Shown here in pieces: positions 1 through 44,909 of a DNA stretch of 64,000 nucleotides. This DNA is from an uncultured Candidatus Saccharimonas sp. (GTDB lineage: Bacteria > Patescibacteriota > Saccharimonadia > Saccharimonadales > AWTP1-31), in NCBI GenBank assembly GCA_943354005.1, contig CALRBE010000003.1, forward strand, positions 30,153 through 94,152, in the 5' to 3' direction. Position numbers and translations under genes: made by a program. The stretch's first letter is position 1. Each line of letters starts with the position of its first letter. The notes under the pieces were generated by a model, which saw only the letters and a list, made by a program, of their open reading frames with translations, ran no database searches and was not told the DNA's origin.

Positions 1-417
1 GAACTAAGTGCAGAAGCGTTGGACTTACATTATTTTATAAACTTACGGGCAGTAACTTTAATGTGTTCTGAGTTTGTAAAAGGTCACCAGAATGGGAAGC
101 AAGGCAATATAGTAAATGTAACTTCAGGGCAATCCATAAGTGCCATGAATGTAGACAAGATTCCTTATACAGTTACAAAAGCTGGTTTAGAAATGTTGGC
201 AATACAACTTGCACCAGGAATAATTAACCTGGGGATAACTATTAATGCCGTTGATCCAGGCCCGACAGATACCGGCTGGATGAGTGATGAAGTCAAGAAA
301 GAGATTCAAAAGAATTCCATAGTTAATAAACCAGAAGAAGTAGCAACCGCAATAGCAGCCTTGTTGCTTGACACGGGCAAGAATACGACAGGCCAAGTAA
401 TCCACGTTGGAAGATGA
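1..417 (+). CDS. short-chain dehydrogenase/reductase (SDR), C-terminal part; 5' end lies outside the window
   Basis: Frame is open from nt 1. The translation carries an SDR catalytic-region pattern (YTVTKAGLEMLAIQLA...NAVDPGPTDT). Confidence 0.7.
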   Translation, partial: ELSAEALDLHYFINLRAVTLMCSEFVKGHQNGKQGNIVNVTSGQSISAMNVDKIPYTVTKAGLEMLAIQLAPGIINLGITINAVDPGPTDTGWMSDEVKKEIQKNSIVNKPEEVATAIAALLLDTGKNTTGQVIHVGR

Positions 418-602
418 GAGTTTTAGTTTGATACTCAGACTATAAGTAAGGGAAAGATTATTCACTAAATGGTTTAATCATTGGTATAATCCGCACAAGG
501 GTTTACCACCTTACCATCTACAATTTCTAGACCAAGATTTACTAGTTTTGTACACATTAATACTATCGACCCCTGTAAAGTGTTCCGCCTGTGGGGGACC
601 GT

Positions 603-614
603 CCTAGCCATGAT
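603..614. repeat. 12-bp direct repeat CCTAGCCATGAT, left copy, flanking the RelE/Phd cassette
   Basis: An identical 12-mer recurs at 1356-1367, immediately after the tRNA-like 3' fragment. Confidence 0.5.
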
Positions 615-631
615 AATAATCAACTTCAGAA

Positions 632-895
632 CTATTTTTTATACACGTCCTTGCGATGCTTGATACTCACAACTTCAAGTGTTTCATCATGAACATCAAA
701 TAAGATCCGGTAATGTCCAATCCTAAAACGGAATGTCCCAATACTAGAACTAATTAACTGTCGAGCAAATAGCAAAGGATCGTCCTGCTTCAGAAAATAA
801 TCTAGTTTCTTGGCAATTCGATTTTTAGTAACCCCATCCAATTTATCTATATCTTTTCTGGCGCTCCGTGCAACTACCAGGCGATATTTGTTCAT
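632..895 (-). CDS. type II toxin, RelE/ParE family
   Basis: 87 aa. The C-terminal block GHYRILFDVHDETLEVVSIKHRKDVY is the classic RelE/ParE core. It overlaps the upstream antitoxin by ATGA. Confidence 0.7.
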   Translation of the reverse strand: MNKYRLVVARSARKDIDKLDGVTKNRIAKKLDYFLKQDDPLLFARQLISSSIGTFRFRIGHYRILFDVHDETLEVVSIKHRKDVYKK

Positions 896-1152
896 TACAG
901 AACATCCCCAAAAACCTCGTCAAAAGTATAAGTTTCACCACGCTTAATTTCTTCACGGGCTGAGGCAATAGACTTAATATAATCGGTATCTTGAAGCAAT
1001 AGTAGGTCCTCAAGGATTTCATCATCAATAATAACTTTACCAGTTAACTTGCCGCGACTTTTTATAAATAAGATGTCTTCTCTGCCGAGTCCCTTAATAG
1101 TAGCAGATAGATTATTGCGTAGATCGGTGGTATCGATTGTTTTAGTGCTCAT
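895..1152 (-). CDS. type II antitoxin, Phd/YefM family
   Basis: 85 aa. The architecture is Phd/YefM-like (N-terminal TIDTTDLRNNLSATIK; EDLLLLQDTDYIKSIASAREEIKRGETYTFDEVFG). It is translationally coupled to the RelE-like gene. Confidence 0.65.
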   Translation of the reverse strand: MSTKTIDTTDLRNNLSATIKGLGREDILFIKSRGKLTGKVIIDDEILEDLLLLQDTDYIKSIASAREEIKRGETYTFDEVFGDVL

Positions 1153-1330
1153 TGTGATTGTCCCTTCTAGGTTACACTGTTATTGTACACTGTGTTGTAC
1201 ATTTAAGTCAATAGTACGAACCCCTCATACTTAATCAGTCGATTCAAGGCCTGCGCCTTTTAAATTTAGATACTAACGATCCTAATTTAGATAGCCCAAT
1301 TAATTGAAAAGGCACTCTGTTCTGTTCCCA

Positions 1331-1363
1331 GGATCGGGGGTTCGAATCCCTCCGCCCTAGCCA
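1331..1363 (+). other. orphan tRNA 3'-half-like fragment (T-arm GGGGG-TTCGAAT-CCCTC plus 7-nt acceptor 3' strand, discriminator and CCA); no matching 5' half
   Basis: Canonical GGTTCGAATCC T-loop followed by CGCCCTA-G-CCA. The complementary 5' acceptor strand (TAGGGCG) is absent from the upstream 300 nt. The fragment's 3' end overlaps the right copy of the 12-bp repeat (1356-1367). Confidence 0.45.
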
Positions 1364-1454
1364 TGATTGACTTTATTAGTAATCAATACGAGGTTCTGTT
1401 GCTATTATGGTATTAGGGCATACAATACACATGCCCACATAATAAAGGCTTCGC

Positions 1455-5061: not shown

Positions 5062-5769
5062 GTGTTTTACGTCCATAGTATAGTGAAGCGAGGAAAAGCA
5101 TTGTATTACATTGACAGAACAGATTTGGGCAAAAAGATGGCCCTAAGAATTGGTGCACTTGGGAGCGTCCAACCTATAATTATTTGTCTTAATGAATCCG
5201 CCTTAAGCACATCGATTGCCCTTGCAAGTGAGCTTCGGGGGTGGATCTTTCCATTGATATCGGAAAATATACAGCTAGCTTCAGATGATAGAATTATTGG
5301 AGTAATAGATTCTGAGGGTCAATATACAGTTAATCCTCAGTTATCTTCATTTGAGCTGGAAGACATAATGTCAGAATATCACGGTATGGTTGATGATAAG
5401 AAAAGAGAAGCATTTAGTAAGATAAACAGGTTGGATAACTCTTACGCTAAAATAGATCCAAATATACTTAATGGCAGGCTAGTTATTTTGTGTGGAGATA
5501 TCGTTAGAAATCAACTACAAATTGGAGCGGTAAGAACATTATTGAAGCCTCACACACCAATTGATATCATCGGCGTTGCTGGAAACATTGACGTTAATGC
5601 AGCCGATTATCTAAGGCTTACTGCCAACAAGACTGAGATGTTCGACGTTATGACTTCAATGTTCGAGGATGACCATTATTTTGAAAAAAATGACGGTTAC
5701 ACGACTGAACAGAGGCATAATATAGCCGTTAATATTTCACAGTTCTGGAAACCAGCAACAAGTAAATAA
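5062..5769 (+). CDS. hypothetical protein, weak phosphoribosyltransferase-like motif
   Basis: 235-aa ORF. Hydrophobic stretch-GD-IV (RLVILCGDIVRNQ) is reminiscent of a PRTase PRPP loop but degenerate. Confidence 0.35.
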   Translation: MFYVHSIVKRGKALYYIDRTDLGKKMALRIGALGSVQPIIICLNESALSTSIALASELRGWIFPLISENIQLASDDRIIGVIDSEGQYTVNPQLSSFELEDIMSEYHGMVDDKKREAFSKINRLDNSYAKIDPNILNGRLVILCGDIVRNQLQIGAVRTLLKPHTPIDIIGVAGNIDVNAADYLRLTANKTEMFDVMTSMFEDDHYFEKNDGYTTEQRHNIAVNISQFWKPATSK

Positions 5770-5791
5770 TAGATACAATGAGGAGATTAAA

Positions 5792-6880
5792 TTGCAACCA
5801 ACACAGAATCCACCAACAACAGTAGCCCCAGGAGTAGCCACTCCAGCGACAGTAACCCAGCCAGGTAGTGCAGGTCAAAAAACATACCAAAGTGGCCTTA
5901 CCGCAGAAGAGCTTGCAAAAAGTAAAAATATTTTAGATACAATTACAGCTTCATATAAGAAAAGAATTGTCGGTCAAGAGAACCTAAAGATCTCCCTACT
6001 TGTTGGCTTACTGACAAGTGGACATGTTCTGATTGAAAGTGTTCCTGGACTGGCAAAGACAACTGCAGCGGCAACTTTAGCGGCAGTCGTACAGGGAAGT
6101 TTCCACAGAATACAGTGTACGCCCGACCTACTACCAAGCGATATCATTGGAACTCAAATATACGACTACACCAATGCAACGTTTAAAACTCAGTTAGGGC
6201 CAGTGCATGCCAATTTCGTACTACTAGATGAGATTAACCGTTCTAGTGCAAAAACACAGAGTGCTATGCTCGAAGCTATGCAAGAGAGGCAAACAACGAT
6301 TGGCGGCACTAAACATCCGCTTCCTACACCTTTCTTAGTATTAGCTACACAAAACCCAATAGAAGAAGAGGGGACATATATACTTCCAGAAGCGCAAATG
6401 GATAGATTCCTACTTAAAGAAATCATCGATTATCCTAATGCAGCCGAAGAACTAGAGATATTAAATAGGTTTGAGTCCGGCATGCTAACCCAAGAATCAC
6501 TAGAAAAGCTCACTGCAGTAACCCTCGAGGACGTAAAATATATGCAGCAATGTACCGAGAAGGTATATCTAGATGAATCTATCAAGAAATATATTGTTGC
6601 AGTTGTAGGGGCGACACGTGAACCAGGAAAGTACATCAGTGCTGATCAGGCCAAATATGTGCAGTTCGGATCAAGCCCACGTGCTAGCCTAGCCTTCATG
6701 CAAGTGTCTAGAGCCCTGGCTTTTCTAAATAACAGAGGCTACGTCATTCCTGAAGATGTTAAGGCTTTAAGATATAGTGTTCTGCGACATAGAATCAAAC
6801 TAAACTTTGAAGCAGTTGCTGATCAGATACACCCAGAAACAATTATTGACGCCATATTCAGCGCGATTCAAACCCCATAA
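5792..6880 (+). CDS. MoxR-family AAA+ ATPase (Bat-operon ATPase) with Pro/Thr-rich N-terminal extension
   Basis: Walker A GLAKTT, Walker B VLLDEINR and sensor region LVLATQNP are present. About 45 N-terminal residues are low-complexity P/T/A/V. Confidence 0.85.
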   Translation: MQPTQNPPTTVAPGVATPATVTQPGSAGQKTYQSGLTAEELAKSKNILDTITASYKKRIVGQENLKISLLVGLLTSGHVLIESVPGLAKTTAAATLAAVVQGSFHRIQCTPDLLPSDIIGTQIYDYTNATFKTQLGPVHANFVLLDEINRSSAKTQSAMLEAMQERQTTIGGTKHPLPTPFLVLATQNPIEEEGTYILPEAQMDRFLLKEIIDYPNAAEELEILNRFESGMLTQESLEKLTAVTLEDVKYMQQCTEKVYLDESIKKYIVAVVGATREPGKYISADQAKYVQFGSSPRASLAFMQVSRALAFLNNRGYVIPEDVKALRYSVLRHRIKLNFEAVADQIHPETIIDAIFSAIQTP

Positions 6881-7776: not shown

Positions 7777-8242
7777 CCTACTATCACCATCGGTTCAATA
7801 TAATATAATCTGGTTTATTATTGGTGCCGTATTACTTTTACTTATAATTGTTTTATACACGTATATATTCTGGACTACTAGAAAAAAGAAGATCCGTACA
7901 TTAGCCACACTGCCCGTTATCACTCAAGTCCATGTTTCAATTGATGCGCTTCGTGAAAAGTACCTAAAAATTATTACTACAATTGAATTCCAATATCAAA
8001 ATAAAGAAATAGACTTGCGACAATTACATTTACTCTTAAGCACAACTGTTCGTTTATTTGTTTACGAGGTAAAGGGTATATCCGTCCATAAGCTTACTCT
8101 TACTGAGATTAAGAATGCTGATCTAGTCAAGCTTTATGACGTAATTGTTAAGTACTATCCTTTAGAGTTCGATTCTCTACAGAATGGGGATGCTAATAAC
8201 TCTGTTGCGCTAGCTAAAGGAATGGTACAACAATGGTCTTAA
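7763..8242 (+). CDS. small TM protein of Bat operon (DUF4381-like position)
   Basis: 159 aa with one N-terminal TM helix. Overlaps both neighbours, suggesting translational coupling. Confidence 0.5.
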   Translation: MQKNDLLSPSVQYNIIWFIIGAVLLLLIIVLYTYIFWTTRKKKIRTLATLPVITQVHVSIDALREKYLKIITTIEFQYQNKEIDLRQLHLLLSTTVRLFVYEVKGISVHKLTLTEIKNADLVKLYDVIVKYYPLEFDSLQNGDANNSVALAKGMVQQWS

Positions 8243-42878: not shown

Positions 42879-43367
42879 TTGCGGTACAATAGCTACATTG
42901 TGAAGAAGAAAAATACACAACCAAAGCTGATTTCCAACCGACGCGCTCGTCATGACTATGAAATTGACGATACACTTCTTGTTGGCATGCAGCTTACTGG
43001 AGCCGAGACTAAAGCACTGCGCCACGGGCACGGACAGCTTCGTGGTGCCTATATTACGGTAAAAGACGACGAACTATACTTACTTAATGCTACTATCTCA
43101 AGCTTGCCCGGAGTATCGATTCCTGAAGCAGAACAGACTAGAACACGAAAGCTTCTTGCAAAACGCAGCGAAATTAATAAACTTATTGCGCTTAAACAAC
43201 AGGGCAACGCAATAGTGCCGCTAGCAATACTAACTGGTAATCGCTACATAAAACTACGTATTGCAGCTGGACGAGGAAAGAAACAGTACGATAAACGCCA
43301 AACACTCAAAGCTAGAGATCAAAACAGGGAAGCTAACGCAGCGATTAAAGATAAGGTACGCTCATGA
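42879..43367 (+). CDS. smpB: SsrA-binding protein SmpB
   Basis: ISNRRARHDYEIDDTLLVGMQLTGAETKALRHG...LYLLNATIS is the canonical SmpB core. Confidence 0.85.
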   Translation: MRYNSYIVKKKNTQPKLISNRRARHDYEIDDTLLVGMQLTGAETKALRHGHGQLRGAYITVKDDELYLLNATISSLPGVSIPEAEQTRTRKLLAKRSEINKLIALKQQGNAIVPLAILTGNRYIKLRIAAGRGKKQYDKRQTLKARDQNREANAAIKDKVRS

Positions 43368-43870
43368 GTGAAGATGCAATAGTTCATATTTTTAACGAAG
43401 ATAATGTCAAAATAGGCGAGATTCCACGTAAGGATCTCACAATCGAGCATAAATGGCGGATTATTTGCGTATGGATTGAAAATGACAAAGGCGAAACCTT
43501 GCTACAGCAGCGATCACTAAAGAAAACACATGGCCCTGGTCTCTGGACGGTCGCAGTTGAAGGAACAGTTGAAAATGACGATTCATTTGAGGAGACAGCA
43601 AGAAGAGAAATCGAAGAAGAAATTGGACTTAAAGAATTTACAATGACAACAGCAAAACGTATTAGCTTTGAAGCCGCAACTGGCTGGAGAGATGCCCAAG
43701 GATATATCGTCCGATGTAACTGGCCAATAGAAAAATTTACTGTTCAAGCTAGTGAAGTCGAGAAGTTGCAATGGAAGAACAAAAAAGATGTTATTCGTGA
43801 AATGAAGGCTCAAGATCCTAAGTATCCAAAACAAGCCCCAATCTGGCTTGAAATGTTTGACCTTGTCTAG
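43364..43870 (+). CDS. NUDIX hydrolase
   Basis: Nudix box GTVENDDSFEETARREIEEEIGL. Confidence 0.75.
   Translation: MSEDAIVHIFNEDNVKIGEIPRKDLTIEHKWRIICVWIENDKGETLLQQRSLKKTHGPGLWTVAVEGTVENDDSFEETARREIEEEIGLKEFTMTTAKRISFEAATGWRDAQGYIVRCNWPIEKFTVQASEVEKLQWKNKKDVIREMKAQDPKYPKQAPIWLEMFDLV
43840..43870. repeat. 31-bp direct repeat, copy 1 (3' end of NUDIX gene including its stop)
   Basis: AATCTGGCTTGAAATGTTTGACCTTGTCTAG. An identical copy lies at 44762-44792, and flanking similarity extends the match to about 55 bp. Confidence 0.8.
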
Positions 43871-43906
43871 CGGACTGTTTTTCTAGTTATATTGCCCCTG
43901 GAGTAT

Positions 43907-44500
43907 TTAAGCCAAATCACTACTAAGATACTTCTTAAGCAAAGAAAAGGGATCAACGTCTTCAATTGATTTTAGGTATTCTTTCCACTCTTTATCATCT
44001 AGTTCAGCAAGGCTTTTATTTGGAAAGGTTGGATGGCCATATACATATAGTAAATCCGTCCACCCATGAAGATTTGTACCTTTTGGTTTATTAGTTATAA
44101 ATCCAACCTCGTTGGCAACTAGTACTTTATCCTTTTTGCCATCATAGTAAGCAACCGCGTATGAAAAGATAGCTCTTCGATCTTTTTCGTCTGCCATAAG
44201 CTTTATAAGTCCCTTATAGCTAAAACTATCAAGCAGTAATTTCACAAATGGCCCTGGAAAGCCATTAAGTGCAGGTATAAAAAAGCCTCTATCATCGACA
44301 ATGATTTTTTTATTTGGAAATGCTTTTTTTGCTTGAGCTAGTTTATATTTTGCGACAGCTTCTATACTTAATTCACGCCCCTCATCAAAGTCGTAAATCT
44401 GTTGCTTCAGAGTAATGCCGATTGAGCCCAACTGTTTTTTAAGACTCTCATATTTCTTTTTATTTGATGTAATAAAATATATATCTTGCGCCTGTTTCAT
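43907..44500 (-). CDS. Ham1/ITPase-family non-canonical purine NTP pyrophosphatase, divergent paralog A
   Basis: FITSNKKK (vs ATGNxGK) and DDRGFFIPALNGFPGPFVK (vs DDSGL.VDALNGAPGVYSAR) match the ITPase/RdgB core. Confidence 0.65.
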   Translation of the reverse strand: MKQAQDIYFITSNKKKYESLKKQLGSIGITLKQQIYDFDEGRELSIEAVAKYKLAQAKKAFPNKKIIVDDRGFFIPALNGFPGPFVKLLLDSFSYKGLIKLMADEKDRRAIFSYAVAYYDGKKDKVLVANEVGFITNKPKGTNLHGWTDLLYVYGHPTFPNKSLAELDDKEWKEYLKSIEDVDPFSLLKKYLSSDLA

Positions 44501-44761
44501 CTAATAATCTCCTTAATAAGTATATCCTCGTCCCAAATACCCCTTACTTTACGTCTAAGGTATAAGTAATATATTTTTAATGTAGAGTCGTAGACTTTAG
44601 TATCAATATCAGGGTTATTCACTTTAACTCCATACATTAAGATAAATATCATATTGAATACGAATATGCAATTCTATAAAAGTTAACTGCAATTGGTCAA
44701 TACAAAAGACGTTATTAGGTTAATGATAACTAAAGACCTAGTATTTCCAAAAGCAAGTAAC

Positions 44762-44792
44762 AATCTGGCTTGAAATGTTTGACCTTGTCTAG
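44762..44792. repeat. 31-bp direct repeat, copy 2
   Basis: Identical to 43840-43870. It preserves the reading frame of the last 13 codons of the NUDIX gene but has upstream stops, so it is a non-functional gene-end copy. Confidence 0.8.
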
Positions 44793-44834
44793 TGGGCTGT
44801 TTTTAGATATAATTTGACAGTTGTAGAACAATAT

Positions 44835-44909
44835 TCGGGAGTAGCTCAATGGTGGAGCAAGAAGCTGTTAACTTCGAGGTTGCCGGTTCGAGTCCGGCCT
44901 CCCGAGCCA
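44835..44909 (+). tRNA. tRNA-Asn (anticodon GTT)
   Basis: Cloverleaf: acceptor TCGGGAG/CTCCCGA, D-stem GCTC/GAGC, anticodon loop CTGTTAA (U33, GUU, A37), T-arm GCCGG-TTCGAGT-CCGGC, discriminator G, encoded CCA. Confidence 0.9.

Follow-up and report, generated by a model that had tools for sequence, protein, structure and literature searches.

How a small toxin-antitoxin (TA) gene pair came to lie between two short direct repeats, one of which overlaps a piece of a tRNA, is the question raised by the left end of a 64-kb stretch of DNA (contig CALRBE010000003.1; hereafter the window, meaning the stretch at its full length) from an uncultured Candidatus Saccharimonas sp. A preliminary description of the locus had suggested a mobile TA module that integrated at, or arrived with, a tRNA-derived attachment (att) sequence. 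In the present analysis, window positions 586-1367 are the outer, tRNA-distal unit of a two-unit island of 1,763 bp at the 3' end of a tRNA-Gln gene, and the locus is probably an att-flanked, recombinase-less islet in the tRNA-Gln(UUG) plasticity zone of a Candidatus Saccharimonas-like bacterium, for which a remnant or a cis-mobilisable unit is the best reading. An intact tRNA-Gln lies upstream, a sister strain has the empty site, other strains combine the unit with different neighbours and arrange it differently, and every junction falls immediately after ...CCTAGCCA. The earlier suggestion holds in that the module both sits at and carries an att sequence, but no unit encodes a recombinase and autonomous mobility is unsupported. 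In window coordinates (negative numbers lie to the left of the window) the island is laid out as follows.

-474 to -400: tRNA-Gln(UUG)
ending at 586-614: unit with a short-chain dehydrogenase/reductase (SDR) gene
615-1363: TA unit, ending in a 55-nt pseudo-tRNA-Gln

The repeat pair and the ends of the units

The 12-mer CCTAGCCATGAT is present in the window in exactly two copies, at 603-614 and 1356-1367, where the preliminary description had placed them, and it is not a common sequence of the window. With a repeat finder it grows to 16 nt, CCG[T/C]CCTAGCCATGAT (599-614 vs 1352-1367, 15/16 identical). About 20 exact 12-mer direct-repeat pairs spaced by at most 1 kb were counted within the window, and a Markov simulation gave an expectation of ~7 repeated 12-mers. 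Taken alone the repeat is weak evidence; its weight comes from its coincidence with a tRNA 3' end and from the comparative data. The abundance of such pairs would suit a reading in which coincidental 12-mers flank an unrelated tRNA-like pseudogene, which is highly improbable, as both copies align to the tRNA-Gln 3' end, over 10 independent contigs show these junctions again where homology predicts them, and the empty site described below stops exactly at the repeat. The features at the two ends of the TA unit are listed here.

586-614, plus strand: decayed att scar closing the SDR unit, GTGGGGGA-CCGTCCTAGCCA plus TGAT, a tRNA-Gln 3' end minus the T-loop; holds the left repeat
615-631, unstranded: left end of the TA unit, AATAATCAACTTCAG..., directly after ...CCTAGCCA(TGAT) in every contig
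1235-1308, plus strand: 3'-end remnant of a small open reading frame (ORF) of 68 aa, ending in ...NQSIQGLRLLNLDTNDPNLDSPIN and a stop; in relatives whose small-ORF unit is intact, this ORF stands before the pseudo-tRNA (comparison with L068 unit 1 and L118)
1309-1363, plus strand: pseudo-tRNA, by alignment the 3' 55 nt of a CUG-type tRNA-Gln, with D-stem 3' strand, anticodon arm, GATC variable loop, T-arm, acceptor 3' strand, G73 and CCA
1334-1367, plus strand: right identity block, 30 nt of the resident tRNA-Gln(UUG) 3' end (1334-1363) plus TGAT; holds the right repeat and forms the junction with the flank

The scar at 586-614 aligns to the T-stem and acceptor end of tRNA-Gln with an 11-nt gap, and its junction recurs in two other contigs (L118 and L139). 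The TA cassette had been described as bounded by the repeats; both copies are real, but the left one belongs to the decayed att scar of the SDR unit and is not an end made by TA insertion alone. The right copy does overlap the tRNA-like 3' end, as had been noticed, since it lies within the identity block 1334-1367. The TA unit starts with (TGAT)AATAATC, always immediately 3' of a tRNA-type CCA, and all mapped junctions lie directly after ...CCCTAGCCA, that is, ...CCTAGCCA / CC(C/T)TAGCCA. A blastn-short search of the window for further att cores returned no more tRNA-Gln-like pieces. Matches to the core with three mismatches at 6676 and 27335 were rejected as chance, both being inside coding sequence (27335 in a helicase-like gene).

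The tRNA-like fragment

The preliminary description had counted 33 nt of tRNA-like sequence with a T-arm, an acceptor 3' strand and CCA. These parts are genuine, but the piece is 55 nt long, collinear in alignment with tRNA-Gln from position 20 (AAGGCA) to the CCA. The stretch 1336-1363 reads as a T-arm (GGGGG/TTCGAAT/CCCTC), the acceptor 3' strand CGCCCTA, the discriminator G and CCA; the T-arm holds one G-T pair, as does that of genuine tRNA-Gln, and by blastn the last 30 nt (1334-1363) equal the 3' end of the resident tRNA-Gln(UUG) at 30/30 positions. The source of the fragment was sought by searching the 22-mer GGTTCGAATCCCYCCGYCCTAG in bacterial genomes taken as one genome per species. 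Stretches that matched numbered 111, almost all of them from Saccharibacteria, and in nearly every scanned stretch the 22-mer is the 3' end of a tRNA-Gln, mostly UUG and in a few cases CUG. Both the Saccharibacterial origin of the window and the derivation of its fragment from tRNA-Gln follow from this. The tRNA-Asn of the window (44835-44909) was rejected as the parent because its 3' end differs. The exact 22-mer followed by CCA was also met at 5297-5318 of a contig from a Limisphaerales metagenome-assembled genome (MAG; L003, JBKJKE010000049.1), with no tRNA-Gln predicted there and a tRNA-Asn ~300 bp away; possible explanations for its presence in this Verrucomicrobiota-labelled contig are a binning error, a transfer event and the remnant of an att site.

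The fragment carries a TTCTG.. anticodon loop and a 4-nt GATC variable loop, like the CUG-type genes of L023 and L065, whereas the UUG type has CATTC. Given this CUG type, it most likely came with the inserted DNA and would not be a displaced piece of the resident gene. Copies in relatives have a perfect anticodon arm, CTGGG-TTCTGGT-CCCAG; in the window the arm reads CTCTG-TTCTGTT-CCCAG, and three substitutions break the stem. These substitutions are clustered at 1315-1326, where CTGGGTTCTGGT has become CTCTGTTCTGTT with respect to all other copies, and the remainder of the 133-nt repeat is 97-100% conserved. A terminator-like hairpin at 1246-1259 (plus strand), AAGGCCTGCGCCTT followed by a T-rich run, was noted inside the small-ORF remnant; in relatives the same bases code within the 68-aa ORF.

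A T-arm without fault, an acceptor 3' strand with encoded CCA, and the fully paired CUG anticodon arm of the relatives could also be expected of a functional, unusual RNA, such as a split or permuted tRNA, a two-piece tmRNA or an intron-containing tRNA with its 5' part elsewhere. This can hardly be credited. ARAGORN, which also models permuted tmRNA, found the tRNA-Asn at 44835-44909 as the only tRNA in the window and nothing at 1150-1366, which bears out the earlier statement that no full tRNA or tmRNA spans that interval. Rfam found no group I intron and, for tmRNA, only a T-arm match of 10.5 bits (threshold 47); the end ...CCCTAGCCA, finishing in TAGCCA with G73 and lacking G3:U70, is unlike tmRNA. 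In the first 1.4 kb of the window no acceptor complement TAGGGCG was seen, the only similar motif being TAGGGCA downstream at ~1413, and the 19 nt upstream of 1309, where the 5' acceptor and D-arm would be expected, have no significant similarity to tRNA-Gln. Acceptor-stem pairing and a complete cloverleaf, which a functional tRNA has, are both missing: the anticodon stem is broken and RNA folding of the region yields no cloverleaf. Moreover, among close strains some have two copies of the element and others have none. The fragment is a piece of a gene, not a gene.

The partner tRNA-Gln, the SDR unit and the empty site

Two contigs, L112 and L113, were retrieved by means of the exact 216-aa protein encoded at 1455-2105. 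The first is identical to the window along 12,105 nt and extends leftwards, so that a window position is the L112 position minus 8546. An intact tRNA-Gln(UUG; anticodon TTG) was found on it at 8072-8146, corresponding to window positions -474 to -400. The search for an intact parental tRNA, proposed with the preliminary description, has therefore yielded a partner gene just left of the window, and the view of the fragment as an orphan 3' half needs amending: no 5' half adjoins it, but it is not truly an orphan, as the intact gene stands 1.76 kb upstream. On L112 the tRNA is followed by the complete SDR gene, then by the decayed repeat and the TA pair, and finally by the pseudo-tRNA. Two parts of the SDR unit are within the window in addition to its scar.

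1-417, plus strand: 3' part of the SDR gene (Pfam adh_short_C2, adh_short); the full gene of 250 aa is on L112, its start being left of the window
418-585, unstranded: non-coding tail of the SDR unit, with no credible ORF or family match; kept with the SDR unit in L118 and L139

L113, which comes from another assembly, is missing the SDR gene and has the empty site, in which tRNA-Gln...CCCTAGCCA is followed by TGATTGACTTTATTAG, that is, window 1364 onward. Its flank after the tRNA starts with TGATTGACTTT..., giving a junction form of tRNA followed directly by TGATTGAC. The flanks of L113 are 98.4-98.7% identical to those of L112, and in comparison with it the window genome has a 1,763-bp insert (L112 8147-9909) that starts just behind the CCA of the tRNA and closes with the CCA of the pseudo-tRNA. 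The SDR gene was also considered as a conserved neighbour of tRNA-Gln, a candidate that was dropped: 8 homologues were found at E ≤ 1e-30, and the best one, ~63% identical, is in an unrelated context without a tRNA.

Variation of the locus among strains

The exact antitoxin was found on at least 23 contigs, whose layouts were mapped. The comparison of the locus across related genomes, also proposed earlier, revealed the same TA unit beside the same tRNA-Gln with other partners and in another order, together with the empty site. The layouts, read from the tRNA outward with a semicolon for each junction, are given below.

Window, L112 and L115: tRNA; SDR unit; TA unit; 216-aa gene
L118: tRNA; SDR; TA unit keeping 84 bp more of the small ORF; terminator and PGA_cap gene
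L139: tRNA; SDR; TA; 541-aa and 583-aa genes; decayed 44-nt UUG-type tRNA-Gln half; terminator and PGA_cap
L068, L114 and five others: tRNA; 337-bp unit (68-aa ORF, pseudo-tRNA end); TA and pseudo-tRNA; 540-aa ... 216-aa ... 442-aa genes; decayed half; PGA_cap
L123: tRNA; TA with a different 180-bp right arm ending in GCCCTAGCCA (10-nt core); small-ORF unit

Hence the TA unit is found on either side of the small-ORF unit (L123 vs L068). Window 1235-1367, a stretch of 133 nt lying right of the TA promoter, corresponds to the end of the small-ORF unit, so the TA unit of 753 bp would have arisen by fusion or deletion. A comparison of L112 with L114 gave 98.2% identity for the TA unit (769 nt), as against 92.3% for the left flank (5,382 nt) and 89.4% for the 216-aa gene, a difference between unit and flank with a Fisher p of 8e-13. 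As the unit is far more alike than its flanks, these values would fit its recent exchange between lineages.

The decayed 44-nt UUG-type half (TTTAATACTGGAATTCGGGGATTCGAATTCCTACTTAGCCA), followed by the terminator hairpin and the PGA_cap gene, was located at ~1140-1200 (minus strand) in L139 and at 684-712 in L114 and L119. It marks the far end of a variable zone of 5-6 kb 3' of tRNA-Gln in sister lineages; the window contains neither a PGA_cap gene nor such a half.

These layouts bear on a different history, in which the locus arose by decay and homologous recombination only: leftovers of one or more large prophages or islands of old date, among which the addictive TA pair survived, would have been rearranged by RecA-type recombination or allelic replacement after DNA uptake, and no unit ever moved as a cassette. 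Such a history would account for the decayed att copies and for the lack of a recombinase in the units and the window. In the right arm of the TA unit a small-ORF unit is recognizable that was shortened step by step, less in L118 and more in the window. The entire zone is closed off in L139 and L114 by the decayed UUG-type half, as would be expected after an old phage insertion, and repeats of this length could now and then give rise to homologous deletions. Nevertheless it is considered unlikely. The TA unit occurs on either side of the small-ORF unit with both junctions exactly at ...CCCTAGCCA, the 10-nt core of L123 is too short for efficient homologous recombination, three types of unit begin exactly after the CCA, and the TA unit is far more alike between lineages than its flanks are.

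The toxin-antitoxin operon

The preliminary description of a RelE-like and a Phd-like gene pair was correct in that both genes are present; their overlap is not the 4-nt ATGA that had been given but one base, the ATG of the toxin and the TAA of the antitoxin sharing position 895 (TAATG). The operon comprises the following features.

632-895, minus strand: toxin gene of the RelE/ParE superfamily, 87 aa (Pfam PF05016)
895-1152, minus strand: antitoxin gene, 85 aa, Phd/YefM-like by position, size and a weak PF02604 match over residues 4-71
1153-1213, minus strand: TA promoter/operator region, from a consensus scan and the sequence

The toxin matches Pfam ParE_toxin with 33.5 bits, above the cutoff of 23, and among solved structures RelE homologues match it best (2khe, Rv2866 as 3g5o_B, and RelE3 as 3bpq_B); in PADLOC it gave a weak CARF_RelE domain match only. 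For the antitoxin the top Pfam match, PhdYeFM_antitox (PF02604), is weak, with 13.3 bits vs a cutoff of 29.8 (E = 0.072), and a PDB search found zero relatives; several of its homologues, 74-84% identical, carry the PHD/YefM name in JGI. NCBIfam returned zero matches for either protein. Ahead of the antitoxin on the minus strand is a sigma-70-like promoter, with a -35 box TTGACT (1211-1206), an 18-nt spacer and a -10 box TACAAT (1187-1182), and TGTACA / ACAGTGTA motifs are repeated in the promoter/operator region. The organization is that of RelE/ParE-Phd/YefM type II operons, with the antitoxin upstream, overlapping genes of ~85 aa, palindromic operator motifs in the promoter, a PF05016 toxin, and homologues carried on mobile elements (e.g., L136). 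It differs in that the antitoxin falls under the Pfam Phd/YefM threshold. The predicted toxin would act either on mRNA at the ribosome, as RelE does, or on gyrase, as ParE does, and the putative antitoxin would neutralise it.

The antitoxin has 138 homologues, 74-100% identical and nearly all of 85 aa, each paired with a ParE_toxin gene. Sampled copies stand between holA and rpsT (L127), beside a phage-tail-like gene (L140) and near a reverse transcriptase (L142). No tRNA-Gln-like ends were found around the sampled copies in unrelated contexts (pairs 74-92% identical), and DNA homology to such copies spans only ~636-1213, i.e., the genes and the promoter/operator. The TA operon is thus a generally mobile module, with the tRNA-type ends belonging to this locus. 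A TA pair 88% identical was also noted on an element at 4001-7330 of L136 (a Logan contig, SRR16798010), together with Replic_Relax, DUF7249 and a bAvd gene, an accessory like those of diversity-generating retroelements; this element has a large serine recombinase of 569 aa, which abuts a tRNA-Glu(TTC).

Candidate recombinases

The genes of the island are the SDR, the toxin and the antitoxin only, and neither the SDR unit nor the TA unit encodes a recombinase. On two viral contigs (L124 and L125) and a MAG prophage with a terminase (L050), a tyrosine integrase (279-286 aa) is encoded close to a 33-44-nt stretch of the tRNA-Gln 3' end. The integrases of L124 and L050 were identified by Pfam Phage_integrase (E = 1e-26 to 1e-28), and that of L125 (279 aa) by eye only.

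L124 (IMGVR_UViG_3300037069_001238), 5065-6837: att and integrase locus
L125 (IMGVR_UViG_3300001534_000076), 7-1059: att and integrase locus
L050, 4642-6710: att and integrase locus

This proximity of the tRNA-Gln end to an integrase makes tRNA-Gln a phage attachment site in Saccharibacteria. L124 additionally holds a LexA-like repressor ORF. In CAZRWV010000001.1 there are two copies of the tRNA-Gln 3' end with different downstream sequence, which may be tandem elements. A scan for the pseudo-tRNA arm with GCCCAATTAATTRAAAAGGCAC gave zero matches in the viral collection; in JGI metagenomes the single match, in an unrelated coding region, was discarded as chance.

Proposed origin of the islet

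On these grounds an order of events can be proposed. Each unit would have entered by site-specific recombination in the last 8-30 nt of the tRNA, newer units being inserted beside the tRNA and older ones pushed outward, with deletions afterwards; the SDR unit would accordingly have been inserted between the tRNA and the TA unit. The recombinase may have been given in trans or may since have been lost, and Saccharibacteria phages with a tyrosine integrase of ~280 aa are plausible suppliers. The link of the units to integrases of the L124, L125 and L050 type is one that we infer. The CUG-type pseudo-tRNA could be an element-borne att arm that once matched a tRNA-Gln(CUG) gene, and the 753-bp TA unit a deletion product in which the RelE/Phd module with its own promoter/operator was fused to the tail of a small-ORF unit. 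As a predicted addiction module, the TA pair would disfavour loss of the islet through recombination of the flanking repeats. Since the att copies are decaying, the left one by the T-loop deletion and the right one by the broken anticodon stem, the units are now probably fixed, or at best cis-mobilisable.

Several points weigh against this reading. No circular form or excision junction was observed, and when the 64 kb were searched by tblastn with two tRNA-Gln-associated phage integrases, no relative turned up. The att blocks of the phages begin in the anticodon loop (44 nt), whereas some unit ends share just 8-10 nt with the tRNA, a mismatch in length owing to which the integrase family of those phages may not be responsible for the insertion of the units. 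The att association of the TA pair is local to this locus, because homologous pairs elsewhere are without tRNA-like ends. Homologous recombination between the repeats of 30-133 nt, or exchange of flanks from strain to strain, could be a source of the changes in presence and order. Finally, L113 and L123 are short metagenomic contigs (~3 kb), in which a mis-join across the 30-nt repeat is possible.

A bolder proposal takes the tRNA-Gln 3' end of this Saccharimonas lineage as an integron-like docking site. There a phage-type tyrosine integrase would act in trans on recombinase-less mini-cassettes (TA, SDR, small-ORF), each closed by a tRNA-Gln-like core, cutting them out as small circles and returning them in any order. 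It is rated as quite doubtful. In a sub-variant, the CUG fragment may be the displaced rest of the original gene, an insertion having once changed the resident anticodon from CUG to UUG. Integron cassette arrays share with the locus the mini-cassettes that are promoter-poor or of a single operon, have no recombinase of their own and vary in order at one site, and TA cassettes are frequent in integrons. Unlike them, the locus has a tRNA 3' end as the recurring site and an array of 2-3 units only. No IntI, attI or attC-type imperfect palindromes were seen, in an analysis that included no search aimed at attC or IntI. If true, such docking would give ultra-small genomes of the Candidate Phyla Radiation (CPR) a dedicated cassette-shuffling locus.

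Relation to known systems and significance

Returning to the att-flanked islet, comparable stacked units are the cis-mobilizable elements (CIMEs) related to ICESt1/3 of Streptococcus. The structure that characterizes a CIME, att-flanked and with no recombination or transfer genes, is present here, and order permutation, the empty site, and 98.2% vs ~92% identity may be taken as no more than indirect signs of excision or mobilisation by a cognate integrase in trans.

Islands and prophages at the 3' ends of tRNA and tmRNA genes, of the Islander type, are a known class (PMC4383910). The locus resembles them in the intact target tRNA at one end, the same-orientation copy of its 3' end at the distal end, the empty site in a relative, and the accessory cargo including a TA module. 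It differs in lacking an internal integrase, in the tiny size of its units (753 and ~1,010 bp), and in a distal fragment that exceeds the identity block and is of the CUG isoacceptor vs the resident UUG. For Dehalococcoides, tandem ssrA-linked islands are described, 15 of them without integration modules and proposed as cis-mobilizable elements (PMC3146451). The two cases have in common units stacked 3' of one small-RNA gene, bounded by repeats, some without an integration module, and variable in content among strains; a serine integrase operates there, whereas phage tyrosine integrases are the only candidates seen here, with tRNA-Gln as the target and a CPR host. Literature searches returned no account of such an islet for Saccharibacteria. 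The structure is therefore a new instance of a familiar kind and reveals no new mechanism.

The locus shows that a classic tRNA-linked plasticity zone has been retained in Saccharibacteria, whose genomes are <1 Mb; very small accessory units in it, including a predicted addiction module, vary between strains that are ~98.5% identical. Recognition of tRNA-Gln as an attachment site of temperate Saccharibacteria phages helps to annotate prophages and islands in CPR genomes, and the site is possibly useful for integrative genetic tools in these hard-to-manipulate bacteria.

A further repeat in the window

Elsewhere in the window a 55-nt direct repeat (43828-43882 and 44750-44804, 89% identical, spacing 922) brackets a gene of 197 aa (43907-44500, minus strand) just upstream of the tRNA-Asn at 44835-44909. 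The 3' end of a NUDIX-like ORF (43364-43870) forms its first copy, and the region resembles a second small insertion beside a tRNA gene, one flank of which has been duplicated.

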